10,105 nucleotides of DNA from a virus (lineage: Duplodnaviria; Heunggongvirae; Uroviricota; Caudoviricetes): the IMG/VR virus record IMGVR_UViG_3300027798_000013; one strand, 5' to 3'. Numbering within the stretch: position 1 is the stretch's first letter; each line of letters opens with the position of its first letter. Position numbers and translations under genes: made by a program. The notes under the pieces are model-generated. The model was not told the DNA's origin and did not search any database. It was given only the letters and a program-made list of their open reading frames with translations. Below, piece after piece: positions 22 through 9,987 of this stretch.

Positions 22-113
22 GCCAGCGAGACTTGACAGTCAGAGAGGTTTTATAAACCTTTTAGCGCCAGATTAGCGTTCTTGAGAGGGTTTGATTCCC
101 TCCGCTGGTACCA
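22..113 (+). tRNA. trnI: Atypical tRNA-Ile(UAU) with long variable arm
   Basis: Acceptor GCCAGCG(22-28)/CGCTGGT(103-109), A110, CCA 111-113. D stem GACT/AGTC with 4-nt loop TGAC. Anticodon stem GAGGT(45-49)/ACCTT(57-61), loop TT-TAT-AA (TAT 52-54). Variable arm AGCGC(64-68)/GCGTT(76-80). T arm GAGGG/CCCTC with loop TTTGATT. D and T loops are non-canonical. Confidence 0.7.
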
Positions 114-120
114 AAACATG

Positions 121-149
121 TTGACATATCAGCATTTATGTCGTATAAT
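121..149 (+). promoter_or_regulatory. sigma70-type promoter (perfect consensus)
   Basis: TTGACA 121-126, 17-nt spacer, TATAAT 144-149. GGAG RBS at 161-164, ATG at 170. Small inverted repeat GACATA(123-128)/TATGTC(137-142) overlaps the -35 box. Confidence 0.9.
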
Positions 150-435: not shown

Positions 436-511
436 AGGACGTTAGCTCAGTTGGTAGAGCGTCTGCCTTACACGCAGAATGTCGGCGGTTCGAACCCGTC
501 ACGTCCTACCA
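436..511 (+). tRNA. trnV: tRNA-Val(UAC)
   Basis: Canonical 76-nt cloverleaf: AGGACGT/ACGTCCT acceptor, GCTC/GAGC D stem, TCTGC/GCAGA anticodon stem with loop CT-TAC-AC, GGCGG-TTCGAAC-CCGTC T arm, A discriminator, encoded CCA. Confidence 0.97.
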
Positions 512-516
512 TATAC

Positions 517-594
517 GTGGCGGTGGCAGAGAGGCCCATTGCATCGGATTGCAAATCCGAAAAACCGTGAGTTCAAATCTCACCCGCCACTCCA
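517..594 (+). tRNA. trnC: tRNA-Cys(GCA)
   Basis: GTGGCGG/CCGCCAC acceptor, U73 discriminator typical of tRNA-Cys, CCA 592-594. TCGGA/TCCGA anticodon stem with loop TT-GCA-AA. GTGAG-TTCAAAT-CTCAC T arm. Confidence 0.93.
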
Positions 595-654: not shown

Positions 655-708
655 TAGGATACTAACAGCAACTTTAATTTCAATGCAAATGAAGAAAAAT
701 GTATCCTG
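655..708 (+). ncRNA. ACAGCAA module A (short, anticodon-loop mimic GCA)
   Basis: AGGATAC(656-662)/GTATCCT(701-707) plus U655.G708; ACAGCAA 665-671; inner stem TTTCA(678-682)/TGAAG(690-694) with 7-nt loop AT-GCA-AA. Confidence 0.7.
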
Positions 709-723
709 TTTAACCAAAATGTA

Positions 724-752
724 GTGACAACATACAGCAAACACGTTATAAT
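724..752 (+). promoter_or_regulatory. Possible internal sigma70 promoter within the array
   Basis: GTGACA 724-729 (5/6 match to TTGACA), 17-nt spacer, TATAAT 747-752. Followed by a GAGA-tetraloop hairpin at 760-781 that could be a transcript 5' end. Confidence 0.5.
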
Positions 753-788
753 AGATACATAGCAAGCAGAGATGCTAGCTAAGAGTTT

Positions 789-954
789 TAGGATCGGTAC
801 AGCAACATTCATATACTATGAATCGTTAGTCACTGTGGTAGTTCGTTGGAGCAGAGTGCGTAAAAACACCGAGCGTTGAAGGCGACTGCTGGAACACACT
901 AACAAGCTCAGAGTGATGGCCTGAGTAAAATAAAAGCAGTCAACAACGATCCTG
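789..954 (+). ncRNA. ACAGCAA module B (long insert)
   Basis: AGGATCG(790-796)/CGATCCT(947-953) plus U789.G954; ACAGCAA 799-805. Inner helices ATTCATA/TATGAAT (807-823), GACTGCT(884-890)/AGCAGTC(935-941), CTCAG/CTGAG (907-925). Confidence 0.7.
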
Positions 955-962
955 TTTAGTCA

Positions 963-1191
963 TAGGATGACTACAGCAATTTAAAACTACATCTTAACGC
1001 TATAGAAGGTGGTTGGAGGACAGGCAGAAATGCTTTCTAGAAATAGACACTGACGGAATAGATAGGTCCAGAGAATCTGGAATATGATGTTTGTACAGAA
1101 AAACACAAACTAGGCAACATGAATGTTGATAGGGTCTGAGTGCCGTAATTGGTCAGACCAGAATACTAAACAAATTGGCACGATCATCCTG
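963..1191 (+). ncRNA. ACAGCAA module C (long multi-hairpin insert)
   Basis: AGGATGA(964-970)/TCATCCT(1184-1190) plus U963.G1191; ACAGCAA 973-979. Inner hairpins AGGCA-GAAA-TGCTT (1022-1035), TCCAGA/TCTGGA (1067-1081), GTTTGT/ACAAAC (1089-1110), CAACA/TGTTG (1115-1128), GGTCTGA/TCAGACC (1133-1159). Confidence 0.7.
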
Positions 1192-1198
1192 TTAAATT

Positions 1199-1251
1199 TA
1201 GAATGTTAACAGCAACATTAAATTTTTTGGTAAAAAGAAAAATACATTCTG
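1199..1251 (+). ncRNA. ACAGCAA module D (short, anticodon-loop mimic GGU)
   Basis: AGAATGT(1200-1206)/ACATTCT(1244-1250) plus U1199.G1251; ACAGCAA 1209-1215; weak inner stem TTTT(1223-1226)/AAAG(1234-1237) with 7-nt loop TT-GGT-AA. Ends 15 nt before the ATG at 1266. Confidence 0.7.
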
Positions 1252-1265
1252 TAAAGGTAATTGAA

Positions 1266-2681
1266 ATGAACGCATTTGTAACAGCAGTAGCAAACCAAGA
1301 AGCCCGTACCGCTAACGGTATGAAGGCACGTAAGAGCACAGCATCAGCTTGTGTTGACTTGTTTTACAACATCGGTGCAAGCCGTGGCAAGGACATCACT
1401 CGTGAGTTCACCGCGGCTTACGTGGAAAACTCTGATGTAGCACTACGCATCGCACAATGGGCACGTGATGTGCGCGGTGGTGCCGGTGAACGTCAACTGT
1501 TCCGCGACATTCTAGTACATCTAGAAAAGCGTGATCCAGACGCCGCTTTGGCTCTTCTAAAGAAGATCCCAGAAGTAGGTCGTTGGGATGACATCTTTGT
1601 GTTCCAAGACCCAGTTCTGAAGTCAGCCGCTTACACCATGTTGGGCGATGCCCTACGTGCCAAGAACGGCCTGGCCGCAAAGTGGACTCCTCGTAAGGGC
1701 AAGATCGCGGCTGAAGTACGAGCATTCTTCGGAATGTCTCCAAAGCAGTACCGCAAGTCATTGGTGTCAATGACCACAGTTGTTGAAACCCAAATGTGTG
1801 CAGGAGATTGGGACAACATCAACTTCAGTCACGTGCCTAGTGTTGCGTCACGCAACTACAAGAAGGCATTCAGCCGTCACACACCGGCATTCGCTGAGTA
1901 TGTGGCCAAGTTGGTGGCAGGTGATAAGACTGTTAAGGTTAACGCCAGCGCAATCTTCCCACATGACGTGTTGAAGGGAGTGATTGGAAGTTACCAACGT
2001 GCAATTTTAGACAAGACAGAAATCAATCATTTGATTGCTCAATGGGACAGCCTGCCTAACTACGTTGGAGATGCCAGCATCATGCCAATCGTAGACGTTA
2101 GCGGTTCTATGTCTTGCCCAGCAGGAAAGAACACTAGTGTGACTTGTATGGATGTTTCAATCAGCTTGGGCTTGTACCTAGCAGACAAGAACAAGGGCGT
2201 GTTCAAGGACACATTCTTGACTTTCTCCAGCAAGCCACAACTTGTTACTCTAAAGGGTAACATTGTTGACAAGGTGGCACAAATGAGCAAGAGCAACTGG
2301 GACATGAGCACTAACCTAAATGCGGCTATGGACAAGATCCTAGACGTTGCGGTTAAGGGTAATGTACCAGCCAGCGACATGCCAGCCATGTTGTTGATCT
2401 TGAGTGACATGCAGTTCAACCAATGCGCCAAGCACGACGACAGCGCAATGGAAATGATCGAACGCAAGTTCGAAGCCTATGGCTACAGCATGCCACAGAT
2501 TGTTTTCTGGAACCTAAACAGTTCAGATAACGTGCCTGTTGCGTCCGACAAGAGTGGTGCGGCTTTGGTAAGTGGATTTAGCCCAAGTATAATGACTAGC
2601 TTGCTAGCCGCTGACTTGGATCAGTTCACTCCAGAAGGCATCATGCTTAAGACTGTAATGAGTGATCGTTACGCTCTGTAA
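1266..2681 (+). CDS. TROVE-like + vWA domain protein (DUF2828-type, Ro60-related architecture)
   Basis: 471 aa from ATG 1266 (AAGGT RBS 1254-1258). Motifs RTANG, DLF, RDVRGGAGER, GRWDD, AKWTPR, MIDAS-like DVSGSM, TFSSKP, ILSDMQF and PQIVFWNL, recognised as typical of the DUF2828 family. Confidence 0.8.
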   Translation: MNAFVTAVANQEARTANGMKARKSTASACVDLFYNIGASRGKDITREFTAAYVENSDVALRIAQWARDVRGGAGERQLFRDILVHLEKRDPDAALALLKKIPEVGRWDDIFVFQDPVLKSAAYTMLGDALRAKNGLAAKWTPRKGKIAAEVRAFFGMSPKQYRKSLVSMTTVVETQMCAGDWDNINFSHVPSVASRNYKKAFSRHTPAFAEYVAKLVAGDKTVKVNASAIFPHDVLKGVIGSYQRAILDKTEINHLIAQWDSLPNYVGDASIMPIVDVSGSMSCPAGKNTSVTCMDVSISLGLYLADKNKGVFKDTFLTFSSKPQLVTLKGNIVDKVAQMSKSNWDMSTNLNAAMDKILDVAVKGNVPASDMPAMLLILSDMQFNQCAKHDDSAMEMIERKFEAYGYSMPQIVFWNLNSSDNVPVASDKSGAALVSGFSPSIMTSLLAADLDQFTPEGIMLKTVMSDRYAL

Positions 2682-2686
2682 GTAAC

Positions 2687-2836
2687 TGCTGGCCCACCTT
2701 AGCCTAGGCTGAGAATCCAGCATCCGCGATACACGAAATGTGGGATGGGCTGTGTATCCGGGGTTTGGTAAGTTTCCTGACACAAAAAAACTTATCACTA
2801 ATTCGTTGTTTTATAACAACATCAGTCCTGTTGATG
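2687..2836 (+). ncRNA. Candidate structured RNA downstream of the TROVE/vWA gene
   Basis: TGCTGG(2687-92)/CCAGCA(2717-22), GATACAC(2728-34)/GTGTATC(2752-58), loop-loop CCCAC(2693-97)/GTGGG(2740-44), GGTAAGTTT(2767-75)/AAACTTATC(2788-96), GTTGTT/AACAAC (2805-20), CATCA/TGATG (2820-36). Single copy, so no covariation support. Confidence 0.4.
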
Positions 2837-2841
2837 CATAG

Positions 2842-2870
2842 TTGACAGGACTTCTTTTTGACTGTATAAT
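2842..2870 (+). promoter_or_regulatory. sigma70-type promoter (perfect consensus)
   Basis: TTGACA 2842-2847, 17-nt spacer, TATAAT 2865-2870; GGAG RBS 2891-2894, ATG 2900. Confidence 0.9.
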
Positions 2871-4200: not shown

Positions 4201-4484
4201 TGCAGGATTTTTACTATGAGCAAACTAGATCTGCTGTAACCGAAGAGTGGAGTGATGAGATTAGTATGTCAACGCTTGCTGAAAAGTTTGATGTTCCTCG
4301 TGTAAGCTATAGAATTTACTATGCCAAGGATGATTTAACTCGTAGAATTTTTATCTTCCGTGGTAACTGTACACAATTTGAAATGAAAACATTGTTAGGA
4401 TTAGGCTTTGTACTTGCTCAAGACAGCGATACAGACAACATTCCCGACCAACCTATAAAGGAAGAACAAAATGCCATGGATTGA
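4197..4484 (+). CDS. Hypothetical phage protein
   Basis: Start moved from 4152 to ATG 4197 (ATGA overlap with the upstream stop); 95 aa, MMQDFYYEQ... Confidence 0.65.
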   Translation: MMQDFYYEQTRSAVTEEWSDEISMSTLAEKFDVPRVSYRIYYAKDDLTRRIFIFRGNCTQFEMKTLLGLGFVLAQDSDTDNIPDQPIKEEQNAMD

Positions 4485-4947
4485 AAATGTAGCGGCCGCT
4501 GATATTCCAACAGGATTTCATCACGCGGCTGGCCCAAACAGTATGCTGATCAGTATTGTGGATCCAGCCAGCTGGCGTCCTGAAGCCAAGCATCAGTTTA
4601 AAGAGCGTCACAACTTTGAGTTTTTGGACGTGGAAGAAAAGGATTCTGTGCTGGAAGAAGCAATGAAGTGTAGTCATGAGCAGGCCGCAGAGCTGGTTCG
4701 CTTGCTACAACACGCATTGGCTAACCGAATGAATGTGGTTGTTCATTGCTACGCTGGCATTTGCAGATCGGGTGCGGTTTGTGAGGTTGGAGTCATGATG
4801 GGCTTCAGTGATACTGAGCGTTTCCGCAGTCCAAACTTGTTGGTCAAACATCGCATGATGAAGCATCTGGGTTGGACTTATGATGAGGCTGAACAGCACA
4901 TACCGCTTGCAGGGGATGAGTATATGCGCCAGGACGGAGACATTTGA
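4471..4947 (+). CDS. Protein-tyrosine/dual-specificity phosphatase-like protein (CX5R)
   Basis: VVVHCYAGICRSGAV is the HCxxGxxRS catalytic loop; upstream ISIVDP and FEFLDV fit this fold. Confidence 0.85.
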   Translation: MPWIENVAAADIPTGFHHAAGPNSMLISIVDPASWRPEAKHQFKERHNFEFLDVEEKDSVLEEAMKCSHEQAAELVRLLQHALANRMNVVVHCYAGICRSGAVCEVGVMMGFSDTERFRSPNLLVKHRMMKHLGWTYDEAEQHIPLAGDEYMRQDGDI

Positions 4948-5179: not shown

Positions 5180-5347
5180 ATGAAAATTCGATTTAACAAA
5201 GACACAATGCCTGACGAACTGTACAATTCGCTGTTAAAACATTTTGTGAACGAAGCAGTTGGACTTGGAGTTGAAGTAAATAAGTTTACCCAGTTTGAGA
5301 ATTGGGTAGTTGAATGTGACGTGGATGTGAAAGAAGCAGTGCATTAA
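5180..5347 (+). CDS. Small hypothetical protein (55 aa, not in ORF track)
   Basis: Hand translation MKIRFNKDTMPDELYNSLLKHFVNEAVGLGVEVNKFTQFENWVVECDVDVKEAVH*; fills the gap exactly, with TAATG coupling to the kinase gene. Confidence 0.8.
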   Translation: MKIRFNKDTMPDELYNSLLKHFVNEAVGLGVEVNKFTQFENWVVECDVDVKEAVH

Positions 5348-5829
5348 TGCCCAAGTGTTATCAATTAATCGGAGTGCCTGCCGCAGGTAAAAGTACTTGG
5401 TACAACAATCAAGATTGGCTAGGCGAGGACAAAGAAGGTCACAAGTATGTTTCTACAGATCAGCATGTTGAAGGATATGCGCAGGATCAAGGAAAAACAT
5501 ACAGTGAAGTTTTTACAGAATACATGCCCACTGCTATCAAGCAGATGATGGTGAATGTCAATATGGCATCTGCACTTCAGATGGACATTGTTTGGGATCA
5601 GACCAGCACTACTGTTGCAAGTCGTGCTCGTAAATTCAATGCATTGCCAGAGTCTTTGAATTATGAACATATTGCTGTAGTGTTCCGTACTCCAGATTTG
5701 GATGTACTCAAAGAACGTTTAGCCAGTCGTCCTGGCAAAGATGTTCCTTGGGAAGTTGTACAGGGCATGATTGATAATTGGGAAGAACCGTCCCTAGAAG
5801 AAGGTTTCAAAGAAATTTGGAGAGTATAA
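5347..5829 (+). CDS. P-loop kinase, polynucleotide-kinase-like (AAA_33 type)
   Basis: Walker A GVPAAGKST, VSTD, DIVWDQTS..ASR, lid LKERLASR, and C-terminal VP.EVV..M...EEP..EEGF resemble the T4 Pnkp kinase domain family. Confidence 0.8.
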   Translation: MPKCYQLIGVPAAGKSTWYNNQDWLGEDKEGHKYVSTDQHVEGYAQDQGKTYSEVFTEYMPTAIKQMMVNVNMASALQMDIVWDQTSTTVASRARKFNALPESLNYEHIAVVFRTPDLDVLKERLASRPGKDVPWEVVQGMIDNWEEPSLEEGFKEIWRV

Positions 5830-6120: not shown

Positions 6121-6729
6121 ATGATGCCTAGTGTATTTTTAGTCAGCGACACGCATTTCGGACACACCGGCGTCTGTCGCTTCACACGTAACGATGGTGT
6201 CACAAAACTTCGCCCATGGGATTCGGCTGAGGAAATGGACGAAGCAATGGTCAAGGCCTGGAACGAACGTGTTAAACCCACTGACAAGGTCTACCATTTA
6301 GGTGACGTTGTTATTAACCGTAAATCGTTAAAAATCATGAGCCGTTTAAACGGTGACAAAGTTTTAATCCGTGGCAACCACGATATCTTTAGAGACGACG
6401 AATACCGTATGTACTTTAGAGAGCTTAGAGCTTATCACGTTATGAATGGCATGATCCTTAGCCATATTCCGTTACATTCGGATTCAATGGGTCGTTTTGG
6501 TACAAACATTCACGGACACACTCACGCAAATCGTGTGAAACGAGCCCGTGGAGTTGATGCTAGAACTGGAGAAGTTCTATACAGCGATGAGCCCGATGTG
6601 CGCTATCATTGTGTATGCGTGGAACAAACTCCAGACTTTGCTCCAATTCTGTTTGAAGATGTCATAAAGAACATTGAAGCAGAAGGCGGATCAATAGGAT
6701 TTAAGAGTGGAAACGGTCCTACTATGTAA
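6121..6729 (+). CDS. Calcineurin-like metallophosphoesterase
   Basis: All five motifs in order: SDTHFGH, HLGD, RGNHD, LSHIP, HGHTH. Confidence 0.92.
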   Translation: MMPSVFLVSDTHFGHTGVCRFTRNDGVTKLRPWDSAEEMDEAMVKAWNERVKPTDKVYHLGDVVINRKSLKIMSRLNGDKVLIRGNHDIFRDDEYRMYFRELRAYHVMNGMILSHIPLHSDSMGRFGTNIHGHTHANRVKRARGVDARTGEVLYSDEPDVRYHCVCVEQTPDFAPILFEDVIKNIEAEGGSIGFKSGNGPTM

Positions 6730-7978: not shown

Positions 7979-8716
7979 ATGGAAAATAAAATCGTAGAGC
8001 ATACTCATCACATACAAGATCATCATGATATAGACAGTATCTGTTTGTCCGCCCTACGAGTCGACACAATGCCAGGATATTGCTGGCCGTTAGATATCTC
8101 AGTAGATACAGAATTATTATTAGAAGGTTGGTTTGATTTATTTCGTAATTTAGGTTATTCTTATAAATTGATTGTAGAAATGCTACGTGACGATTTTGTA
8201 GGAAAATACAAGCAGTTAGGAAATCCCAAAGACCCTATTGCATGGGATATGAATCTAACACATTACCCGGAATTAACCGGAGATGATCGTTGGCGTAAAT
8301 TTAGGGGAACTGTAGAATGGATAAAAGACGATGGCGGTGATCCCAAACGTGCGACCGAGATTTTATCAGAGATAAAAAATACATATTTAGAACAACTAAT
8401 TAAAACTTTGTTTGAGCATCATGCTAAAACTTTCGATAGAGAATTCAAAGGACAACTAAACGTTACGTGGGTTGGGCCTGGGCAACGATACAATCTACAC
8501 AACGATTCTAATATACATTTAAGATATCATATTCCAATAATAACAAATCCAAACGCATTTTGGATATTTCAAGATCCAGTTGATTTTAACAAATACTATA
8601 AAATGCACATGCCGCTGGGTAGTGTATGGATGTTAAATCCTGTTGACATAGTTCATACTGTAGTAAATCAATGGGATACTGCGAGAGCACACTTACTGCT
8701 GTCTGAGTTTAAGTAA
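7979..8716 (+). CDS. Asp/Asn beta-hydroxylase-like 2OG-Fe(II) oxygenase
   Basis: LHND (HxD), RYHIPIITNP, GSVWMLN, HTVVN (distal His), RAHL (2OG-binding Arg). Confidence 0.8.
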   Translation: MENKIVEHTHHIQDHHDIDSICLSALRVDTMPGYCWPLDISVDTELLLEGWFDLFRNLGYSYKLIVEMLRDDFVGKYKQLGNPKDPIAWDMNLTHYPELTGDDRWRKFRGTVEWIKDDGGDPKRATEILSEIKNTYLEQLIKTLFEHHAKTFDREFKGQLNVTWVGPGQRYNLHNDSNIHLRYHIPIITNPNAFWIFQDPVDFNKYYKMHMPLGSVWMLNPVDIVHTVVNQWDTARAHLLLSEFK

Positions 8717-9397
8717 AATTAAGTCAGCAAATGCTCGGTGAGCTGTTTGATTATAATGGTTCAATGGCAACTGCTCGTATCCTTGTTTCAAACACCAAGA
8801 ATTAAAATCTTCAAATAAAATTTTACTAGCGTCAGTATTCGGCACTGTATTAAAAATATTACTAAATCCAAAAATATGAAGATAGTTTGCAGACAAGTTC
8901 TTACATGCTTGGTCAACATAAAATAATATATTTTCTACACCATCAGTGTTTACCCGTAGCATATTTTCAATAAAATATTTGTTGATAGGGTGTTTTTTTA
9001 AATTATTATTGAATTGATCACCACTCCACTGTATACCCAATTGAATATAATCAGTATTGTCTCTAGCGTAGAAATTTCCGCTATCGGGGTAGTACACCTC
9101 TGTTCGATGTGGTTCAGTATACAAAAATAATACTAAACTGTTGGGATGATCTGCCAGTGCTTTGGGTAACAGTCTTAAACTTCTGTCGTTACTGCCCCCG
9201 CTTAATGCGTAATTGTAACAAGGGATATTTAAACTGTCAGCTACTAGTTTAGGAAAAGCAAACGGTTTAGTTTGGCTGTCCATTTCTTCCAAACTTAAAT
9301 CACCTTTGATATAGTCATTGACAATTTCTTGTCCCAACAGTTCGCAACCAGCAACGTGGCTATCACCAAATGCTAGCACAGAGTCATATTGAATCAT
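8693..9397 (-). CDS. SGNH/GDSL hydrolase-like protein
   Basis: N-terminal AFGDSH (GDS nucleophile), NYALSGGSND block, C-terminal NHYNQTAH candidate catalytic His region. Confidence 0.65.
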   Translation of the reverse strand: MIQYDSVLAFGDSHVAGCELLGQEIVNDYIKGDLSLEEMDSQTKPFAFPKLVADSLNIPCYNYALSGGSNDRSLRLLPKALADHPNSLVLFLYTEPHRTEVYYPDSGNFYARDNTDYIQLGIQWSGDQFNNNLKKHPINKYFIENMLRVNTDGVENILFYVDQACKNLSANYLHIFGFSNIFNTVPNTDASKILFEDFNSWCLKQGYEQLPLNHYNQTAHRAFADLILLKLRQQ

Positions 9398-9987
9398 AAA
9401 GTGTACTCTGTGCTTAGAATAGTATCAACATGACTAACTGGAATTTTGAAAATCAAATGAGCACGTTCAGTTGTTCCTTGATTATCCGTTGCATGAGTGA
9501 TACTAGTGTTAACCAAATAAGCATGGCCCGTTTCTAAAACAAACTTTTCACCTTCGTATAGAAAATAGCTGAGAGTGTTAGTTTCGATTGGGATATGGAT
9601 TTTCCAATGGTCTGACAGATATTCCTCTACATCAATATGCCAGGGCAACTTTGATCCAGGATAATGCACTGTGATTACTGTTTGTTTTACTTCAGGAAAT
9701 GCATCTATGATCTTTTTACCAAAACCAAATACTAATTCAGTTGGCCTATCAAAGTCCCCAACGAAATCATTTTCGTCATCAGTGGGCAAATGATAAGGGC
9801 TACACGGACGGGTAGCATCTTTCATTTTAGTTTGTATTGCCCAACTGTATGCTAGGTCACTAAATTCTCCAGGAGGCGCTTGCCACTTCATATGATCATA
9901 GTCGTGTTTAAGGGTATGATAATATGCGACCAGTTCTGCATGATTAAACTTAACATTGTCTAACCGTTGTATTTTAAAATCTAGCAT
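9394..9987 (-). CDS. Asp/Asn beta-hydroxylase-like 2OG-Fe(II) oxygenase
   Basis: PGSKLPWHID (HxD), KIHIPIETN, GHAYLVNT..HATDN, ERAHLIF; ATGA overlap with the SGNH gene. Confidence 0.85.
   Translation of the reverse strand: MLDFKIQRLDNVKFNHAELVAYYHTLKHDYDHMKWQAPPGEFSDLAYSWAIQTKMKDATRPCSPYHLPTDDENDFVGDFDRPTELVFGFGKKIIDAFPEVKQTVITVHYPGSKLPWHIDVEEYLSDHWKIHIPIETNTLSYFLYEGEKFVLETGHAYLVNTSITHATDNQGTTERAHLIFKIPVSHVDTILSTEYTL

Follow-up and report, generated by a model that had tools for sequence, protein, structure and literature searches.

Analysis of a 10,105-nucleotide (nt) stretch of DNA from a virus of the Caudoviricetes (IMG/VR record IMGVR_UViG_3300027798_000013), hereafter the window, which is part of a 17.5-kb viral contig, led to four repeated modules located 14–611 nt upstream of a gene for a 471-amino acid (aa) protein of the DUF2828/DUF7788 type and on the same strand as that gene. 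As judged from sequence comparison, the modules, whose 5′ and 3′ ends pair with each other, form a tandem series of non-coding RNA genes that belong to a widespread and as yet unnamed RNA family found in phages and bacteria. The predicted handle of this family consists of an end-joining stem of 7–8 bp, which is free in sequence but always paired and has an AG...CU base, an unpaired ACAGCAA placed 1–3 nt past the 5′ arm, and a 3′ G(U). By analogy, and with binding deduced from the fold of the protein and from co-occurrence, we consider it fairly probable that the locus encodes a particle similar to that of Ro60 and Y RNAs, but with a protein of another family and another RNA handle. Phage annotation and one preprint already reflect the Ro-like character of the protein. 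No previous description seems to exist of the RNAs as a family, of their handle or of the statistical association with the gene; we found no publication describing an ACAGCAA RNA family and none on the function of DUF2828.

All four modules follow the general form U-AGNNUNN-NN-ACAGCAA-insert-NNANNCU-G, with CUGU at their 3′ end (Table 1). They were found where the original prediction, made from the letters of the window alone, had placed them, each with a different stem of seven perfect Watson–Crick pairs. The predicted compensatory changes are present at three arm positions and every difference between the stems is compensated. Likewise, the flanking U and G close the stem in 4/4 modules by a U.G pair that works on one strand only, the invariant ACAGCAA lies at a fixed offset, 2 nt past the 5′ arm, in 4/4 modules, and the inserts differ in size as claimed (29, 141, 205 and 28 nt in A–D). 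ACAGCAA occurs five times within 551 nt, compared to about 1.3 occurrences expected per strand across the 17.5-kb contig. The fifth copy (734–740, + strand) is without a closing stem and lies inside the spacer of a promoter-like site. In the minimum-energy folds of A and D the terminal stem is closed and ACAGCAA is unpaired. Compared to shuffled sequences, the fold energies of A (z = −0.95), D (z = −0.76) and B (z = −1.25) are no better, and module C (z = −3.2) alone stands out among the four. Since A and D are no more stable than their shuffles, the case rests on comparison and not on thermodynamics. A possible variant handle of 96 nt was also noted on the same contig, about 900 nt upstream of the window (G000:C1:1119-1214, + strand), with the stem TAGCAAC/GTTGCTG and the motif TCAGCAA; the TCAGCAA variant is likewise present in Ralstonia phage RSP15 (L001:5063-5118).

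In 80 loci of close relatives (protein 85–96% identical), all four types of module are again present, their handles unchanged and their inserts divergent. These loci also bear extra modules with other stems, and at least 15 distinct, perfectly paired AG-N-N-U-N-N arms were seen overall. Specifically, the handle of module B is invariant across 26 orthologues while its internal hairpin covaries, and module C presents nine pairs with changes on both sides across 19 orthologues. An unbiased handle scan of the viral collection was performed with the pattern TAGGAT-N4-ACAGCAA-N20-50-ATCCTG, which leaves two stem positions free and ignores the protein. The free positions were complementary in 85 of the 92 matches, compared to 1/16 by chance. 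One set of stem-pair statistics was discarded as evidence of pairing because it was circular, the sequences having been picked for having stems. Additionally, we built a covariance model of the short handles, R1, with modules A (52.4 bits) and D (46.6 bits) and one short module of RSP15 (37.7 bits) in its seed. Independent members, from the E. coli phage SUSP2 and from jumbo phages, scored between 25.6 and 58.5 bits. The long-insert modules B and C are missed by R1, being too long for the model, and are assigned by the pattern alone.

The original prediction also held that such modules would be enriched beside DUF2828 genes, and this proved to be so in a distant set of 80 loci from prokaryotic assemblies, mostly contigs of metagenome-assembled genomes (MAGs) of many phyla, with a DUF2828 protein 33–67% identical. 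Counting each ACAGCAA with a closing stem of 7 bp or more and comparing with permuted motifs, 107 were found on the gene strand against 9.8 expected, and six on the opposite strand against 7.3 expected, so that the enrichment is strand-specific. At least one handle is present in 48/80 loci and 99 of the 107 handles lie upstream of the gene, at a median of about 300 nt. The nearest one ends 19–60 nt before the start codon in 19/45 loci, similar to module D. In the reverse test, 80 records were picked by the handle pattern alone and 75 of them were searchable, most being less than 25% complete. Handles fetched without reference to the protein were found mostly in gene-carrying records: at least 44/75 have a DUF2828 gene (26 in the fetched stretch and 18 elsewhere in the record), compared to a base rate of 711 in 50,697 isolated phage genomes. 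In the gene-bearing loci of this set, 29/29 handles are on the gene strand. No TROVE domain was found in the handle-bearing records without DUF2828. Among individual genomes, all R1 matches in three jumbo phages (345–364 kb) are on the gene strand and no further than about 17 kb from the gene. SUSP2, which is outside the R1 seed, bears two handles in the tRNA array that immediately follows the gene, and RSP15 has handles near the gene.

Two further observations concern these loci. In SUSP2, an annotated hypothetical coding sequence (L362:5332-5502) overlaps the handle RNA at 5376-5438 (30.6 bits with R1) and has probably been annotated as a gene by mistake. A contig assigned to a Micavibrio MAG carries a freshwater-1 RNA (RF02979, function unknown) that has a handle RNA on one side and the DUF2828 gene on the other (L191:1007-1068, 82.7 bits, gathering score 72).

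The 471-aa protein starts with the ATG at 1266, which is preceded by AAGG 8 nt upstream; an ATG at 1203 was rejected as the start because it lies inside module D. That the adjacent protein is of the DUF2828 type was confirmed in Pfam, where DUF7788 (PF25043, 166.4 bits, cut-off 27.1) and DUF2828 (PF11443, 96.4 bits, cut-off 29) both score above their cut-offs, and the PHROG match is phrog_850, 'RNA-binding protein' (E-value = 2.8e-141). The family comprises 6,232 clusters at 50% identity. Homologues are labeled 'Ro-like RNA binding protein' or 'RNA-binding protein' in phage records, and the gene is present in isolated phages including those of E. coli, Salmonella, Listeria, Staphylococcus and mycobacteria. 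Residues D277, S279, S281, T349 and D381 of the metal ion-dependent adhesion site (MIDAS) are invariant among 38 homologues. The description of the gene as TROVE-like with a vWA domain stood for the predicted fold, which is the full Ro60 ring plus vWA, and failed for the sequence, as Pfam gave no TROVE match. A profile of the 38 homologues reached TROVE/Ro60 among PDB sequences with E-values of 0.07–0.13, over the vWA MIDAS stretch only. In contrast, an AlphaFold2 model made from the same homologues (mean predicted local distance difference test, pLDDT, 89.2; predicted template modeling score, pTM, 0.87) retrieved Ro60/TROVE structures at all of Foldseek PDB ranks 1–12 (E-value = 4.5e-8 to 5.7e-5), and among Swiss-Prot models Ro60 of mouse, frog, human and Deinococcus came at the top. 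VIA-align with the Xenopus Ro60–RNA complex (1yvp_A) gave Z = 20.7 and a root-mean-square deviation of 4.0 over 414 aligned residues, while the next fold after Ro60 reached Z = 9.8 and covered the vWA domain only. Because the Ro60 fold extends over the full length and the sequence relation is marginal (E-value of about 0.1), the protein has, on the predicted model, the shape of Ro60 but belongs to another Pfam family and not to TROVE. Three viral records have a DUF2828 gene in two parts, N- and C-terminal, about 0.9–1 kb apart (Table 1), which suggests an intron or the insertion of a homing endonuclease.

Ro60 and its Y RNAs form a classic RNA-surveillance particle that is still poorly understood. 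Ro60 genes with neighboring Y RNAs are known in bacteria and phages, the bacterial ones being represented by Rsr with YrlA/YrlB (Chen et al., 2014; PMC4201824), while the Ro60 of Thermus phage phiLo binds two upstream Y-like RNAs (Yrl1/Yrl2) and the host PNPase (PMC12135203). The locus described here shares with these systems several small RNA genes adjoining the protein gene on the same strand, and RNAs in which a terminal stem joining both ends is combined with a variable module; the window protein shares with Ro60 (Rsr) the helical-repeat ring and the vWA/MIDAS domain, as judged from its predicted fold. The permuted tRNA body that serves as the module of YrlA is found also in handle RNAs of related phages. 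Specifically, the arms of a long handle module of RSP15, which scores 25.8 bits with the YrlA model, enclose a tRNA body in circularly permuted order (T-arm, acceptor, D-arm), and a long handle module of another related locus (L190) scores 41.6 bits, both scores being below threshold. In the window, positions 595–1275 gave no YrlA match (RF02553, gathering score 69 bits) even at E ≤ 10, nor a weak Y_RNA score. The two systems differ in the protein, TROVE for Ro60 and DUF2828/DUF7788 here, as well as in the RNA, since the Y RNA stem carries a bulge or a CGAA motif whereas the window handle is a plain stem of 7–8 bp plus a single-stranded ACAGCAA.

The motif had originally been matched to no named RNA family. 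This held in that no Rfam family was matched at its gathering score, and had to be qualified in that ACAGCAA is the core of the signature of the Dictyostelium Class I RNAs (RF01414). Under permissive settings, the best Rfam matches of the region were to RF01414, with 20.2 bits for module A and 17.4 bits for module D (gathering score 41.5), and the boundaries of the matches coincide with the two modules. Short modules in related loci reached 32.4 bits (L203) and 28.1 bits (L191), below threshold as well, and module A agrees with 9 of the 11 positions of the Class I motif, including the five near-invariant ones. Class I RNAs are about 60 nt long, with a 6-bp terminal stem of free sequence and compensatory changes and the 11-nt motif CCUUACAGCAA adjoining the 5′ arm, and they begin with AAG and end with CUGU, both conserved (PMC7919456). 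Like short handle RNAs, they are A/U-rich RNAs of about 55–60 nt with a short, compensated, free-sequence stem and a variable remainder; they also have ACAGCAA, the core of CCUUACAGCAA, right after the 5′ arm, and their conserved AG at the 5′ stem base and CUGU 3′ end compare with UAG and CUGU in the window modules. The differences are a stem of six pairs instead of 7–8, the DUSE element about 60 nt upstream of Class I genes, compared to the sigma-70-type promoters of a phage contig, and the inserts of 140–200 nt carried by some members of the handle family. Class I RNAs have been reported as confined to Dictyostelia (PMC7919456), and the protein shown to bind them, Rnp1A, is of the RRM type and not Ro-like (Kjellin et al., 2021; PMC7919456). 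Structure matches suggest that the DUF2828/DUF7788 Ro-like family is widespread in eukaryotes too. It is a long shot that phage handle RNAs and dictyostelid Class I RNAs represent a single kind of RNA, either through common descent or because phages infecting the bacteria eaten by the amoebae passed it on, and that the shared stem, ACAGCAA and CUGU would dock Ro-like proteins of the DUF2828/DUF7788 family.

A hint at counter-defense is offered by Bas63 (Escherichia phage JohannRWettstein), whose Ro60-like gp130, encoded just upstream of a tRNA array, is reported to counter the Ppl defense (PhageMaP preprint, PMC11482910). The authors suggest that some of the neighboring 'tRNAs' may be Y RNAs (PMC11482910). 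The likeness to our locus lies in a Ro60-like phage protein adjoining a tRNA array, while the RNAs and the ACAGCAA handle are not defined in the preprint. Related Ounavirinae phages of E. coli, e.g., SUSP2, have a DUF2828 homologue (36–37% identical) directly upstream of the tRNA array, and gp130 probably belongs to the DUF2828 family, as judged from its description and from the relatives of Bas63.

Several observations weigh against a Ro60/Y-RNA-like particle and have to be considered together with the competing explanations. No strict handle was found in 32/80 distant loci (up to 4 kb searched on each side). Two large partial genomes, of 83 kb (75% complete) and 250 kb (67% complete), bear a genuine handle with no DUF2828 or TROVE gene in the available sequence. 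Both the handle and the gene reside in tRNA/RNA islands, and their co-occurrence could partly reflect shared residence. In a permissive Rfam scan the inserts of B and C showed no tRNA-like or other recognizable domain. Furthermore, plasmid-borne gp130 was by itself enough to rescue T7 on a host with Ppl (PMC11482910), so the protein is able to function when no phage-encoded handle RNAs are present. The modules might then be real small RNAs with some other partner, such as a host protein, an RRM-type protein or an enzyme of tRNA processing or repair, the DUF2828 gene merely sharing the same RNA island. This would agree with the function of gp130 without phage RNAs, the two genomes without the gene, the handles found in RNA islands at distances of up to 17 kb from the gene and the binding of the look-alike Class I RNAs by Rnp1A (PMC7919456). 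We nevertheless find it unlikely, in view of the strict same-strand linkage, of the handles 19–60 nt from the start codon in many distant lineages, of a predicted protein fold otherwise seen in a protein specialized in binding small RNAs with a closing stem, and of the YrlA-like architecture of some modules.

The transcription of the locus bears on a second explanation, by which the modules are cis-acting parts of a transcript, either processing or stability signals or a translational operator of the DUF2828 mRNA. The consensus promoter at 121–149 is likely to start a unit of the small open reading frame (ORF), two tRNAs and module A, whereas B, C, D and the protein gene would be expressed as a single transcript from the promoter-like site at 724–752, which lies between modules A and B. 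A scan of the window sequence found no terminator-like site before 2824, so B, C and D run unbroken to the gene. Taken together, these sites suggest that B, C and D are a processed leader of the mRNA of the gene; given their probable position in the 5′ leader of its own transcript, a cis-regulatory role may be considered. Module D also ends 14 nt before the start codon, adjoining the ribosome-binding site, and this position recurs in other lineages. A purely cis-acting role is quite improbable, however, as SUSP2 and RSP15 have handles downstream of the gene, among tRNAs, and as many copies per genome carry unrelated, structured and covarying inserts, including permuted tRNA bodies, none of which an operator or a cleavage signal needs. 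That the repeats act as DNA, as inverted-repeat mobile elements, recombination sites or protein-binding sites, might be proposed from tandem inverted repeats flanking variable inserts, but it is hardly credible: the closing U.G pair functions on one strand only, the asymmetric motif always points the same way as the tRNAs and the gene, the stem sequences vary freely while pairing stays, and neither target-site duplications nor transposase genes were found.

Returning to the particle as the preferred reading, a working model can be proposed. The handle RNAs would be transcribed on the + strand together with the tRNAs and the downstream gene, and presumably be cut from the precursor. By analogy and given the co-occurrence, the DUF2828 protein would most likely dock on the stem and the single-stranded ACAGCAA, much as Y RNAs are bound by Ro60 through their conserved stem, while the variable inserts might act as effector, adaptor or decoy modules for other RNA-handling factors. 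The particle would probably act in RNA-level conflict with the host, by counter-defense or by RNA repair and surveillance. Because module D adjoins the ribosome-binding site, its interaction with the protein could in addition let the protein limit its own translation.

Concerning the rest of the window, the order on the + strand is a tRNA-like element, a promoter, the small ORF, two tRNAs, the four modules, the 471-aa gene and a terminator-like hairpin (Table 1), and the four modules thus sit inside a tRNA island. The best Rfam match of the first element was tRNA-Sec, at 30.6 bits (threshold 47) and therefore below it, a long extra arm being responsible. The small ORF, with an Rpb6/omega domain of RNA polymerase, is established between a perfect consensus promoter and the tRNAs. 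The transcription unit likely ends at the hairpin. Between the stop codon and this hairpin, 140 nt (2682–2822, + strand) fold into several hairpins better than shuffles (z = −2.6) with no Rfam match, and could be another structured RNA or an element of the 3′ untranslated region. Downstream of the Ro-like gene, the predicted phosphatase, P-loop kinase and phosphoesterase resemble an RNA end-healing set. Finally, two ORFs (7979–8716, + strand; 9394–9987, − strand) have weak Asp/Asn beta-hydroxylase (cupin-type) domains.

Table 1. Features of the window, with the split DUF2828 genes of three other viral records in the last rows.
Feature	Position	Strand	Description
tRNA-like gene	22–113	+	Unusually long (92 nt); ARAGORN: tRNA-Ile(UAU)
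Sigma-70-type consensus promoter	121–149	+	TTGACA-17-TATAAT; 12/12 matches
ORF, 86 aa	170–430	+	RNA polymerase Rpb6/omega domain (PF01192, E-value = 8.4e-10)
tRNA-Val(UAC)	436–511	+	70.8 bits
tRNA-Cys(GCA)	517–594	+	60.1 bits
Module A, 54 nt	655–708	+	U655; 5′ arm 656–662 AGGATAC; linker UA; ACAGCAA 665–671; 29-nt A/U-rich insert; 3′ arm 701–707 GTATCCT; G708
Promoter-like site	724–752	+	GTGACA-17-TATAAT; 11/12 matches; between modules A and B
Module B, 166 nt	789–954	+	U789; 5′ arm 790–796 AGGATCG; ACAGCAA 799–805; 141-nt structured insert; 3′ arm 947–953 CGATCCT; G954
Module C, 230 nt	963–1192	+	U963; 5′ arm 964–970 AGGATGA; ACAGCAA 973–979; 205-nt structured insert; 3′ arm 1185–1191 TCATCCT; G1192
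Module D, 53 nt	1199–1251	+	U1199; 5′ arm 1200–1206 AGAATGT; ACAGCAA 1209–1215; 28-nt insert; 3′ arm 1244–1250 ACATTCT; G1251
DUF2828/DUF7788 gene, 471 aa	1266–2681	+	Predicted helical ring and vWA domain with intact MIDAS
Terminator-like hairpin with T run	2824–2852	+	Overlaps the next consensus promoter (2842–2870)
DSP-type phosphatase	4471–4947	+	Downstream of the Ro-like gene
P-loop kinase	5347–5829	+	AAA_33; weak polynucleotide-kinase PHROG match
Calcineurin-like phosphoesterase	6121–6729	+	Metallophosphoesterase
Split DUF2828 gene	G015:C1:30181-32564
Split DUF2828 gene	G018:C1:114278-116802
Split DUF2828 gene	G043:C1:14903-17255

The locus points to a second and much larger branch of the Ro60/Y RNA idea, with a distinct protein family, its own handle and swappable cargo, and the system is open to tests in standard laboratory phages. 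The likeness to Class I RNAs offers a concrete hypothesis for the role of the latter, a question open since 2004; if true, these orphan RNAs would gain a partner and a function. For the phages themselves, the handle RNAs may be missing components of a counter-defense mechanism.

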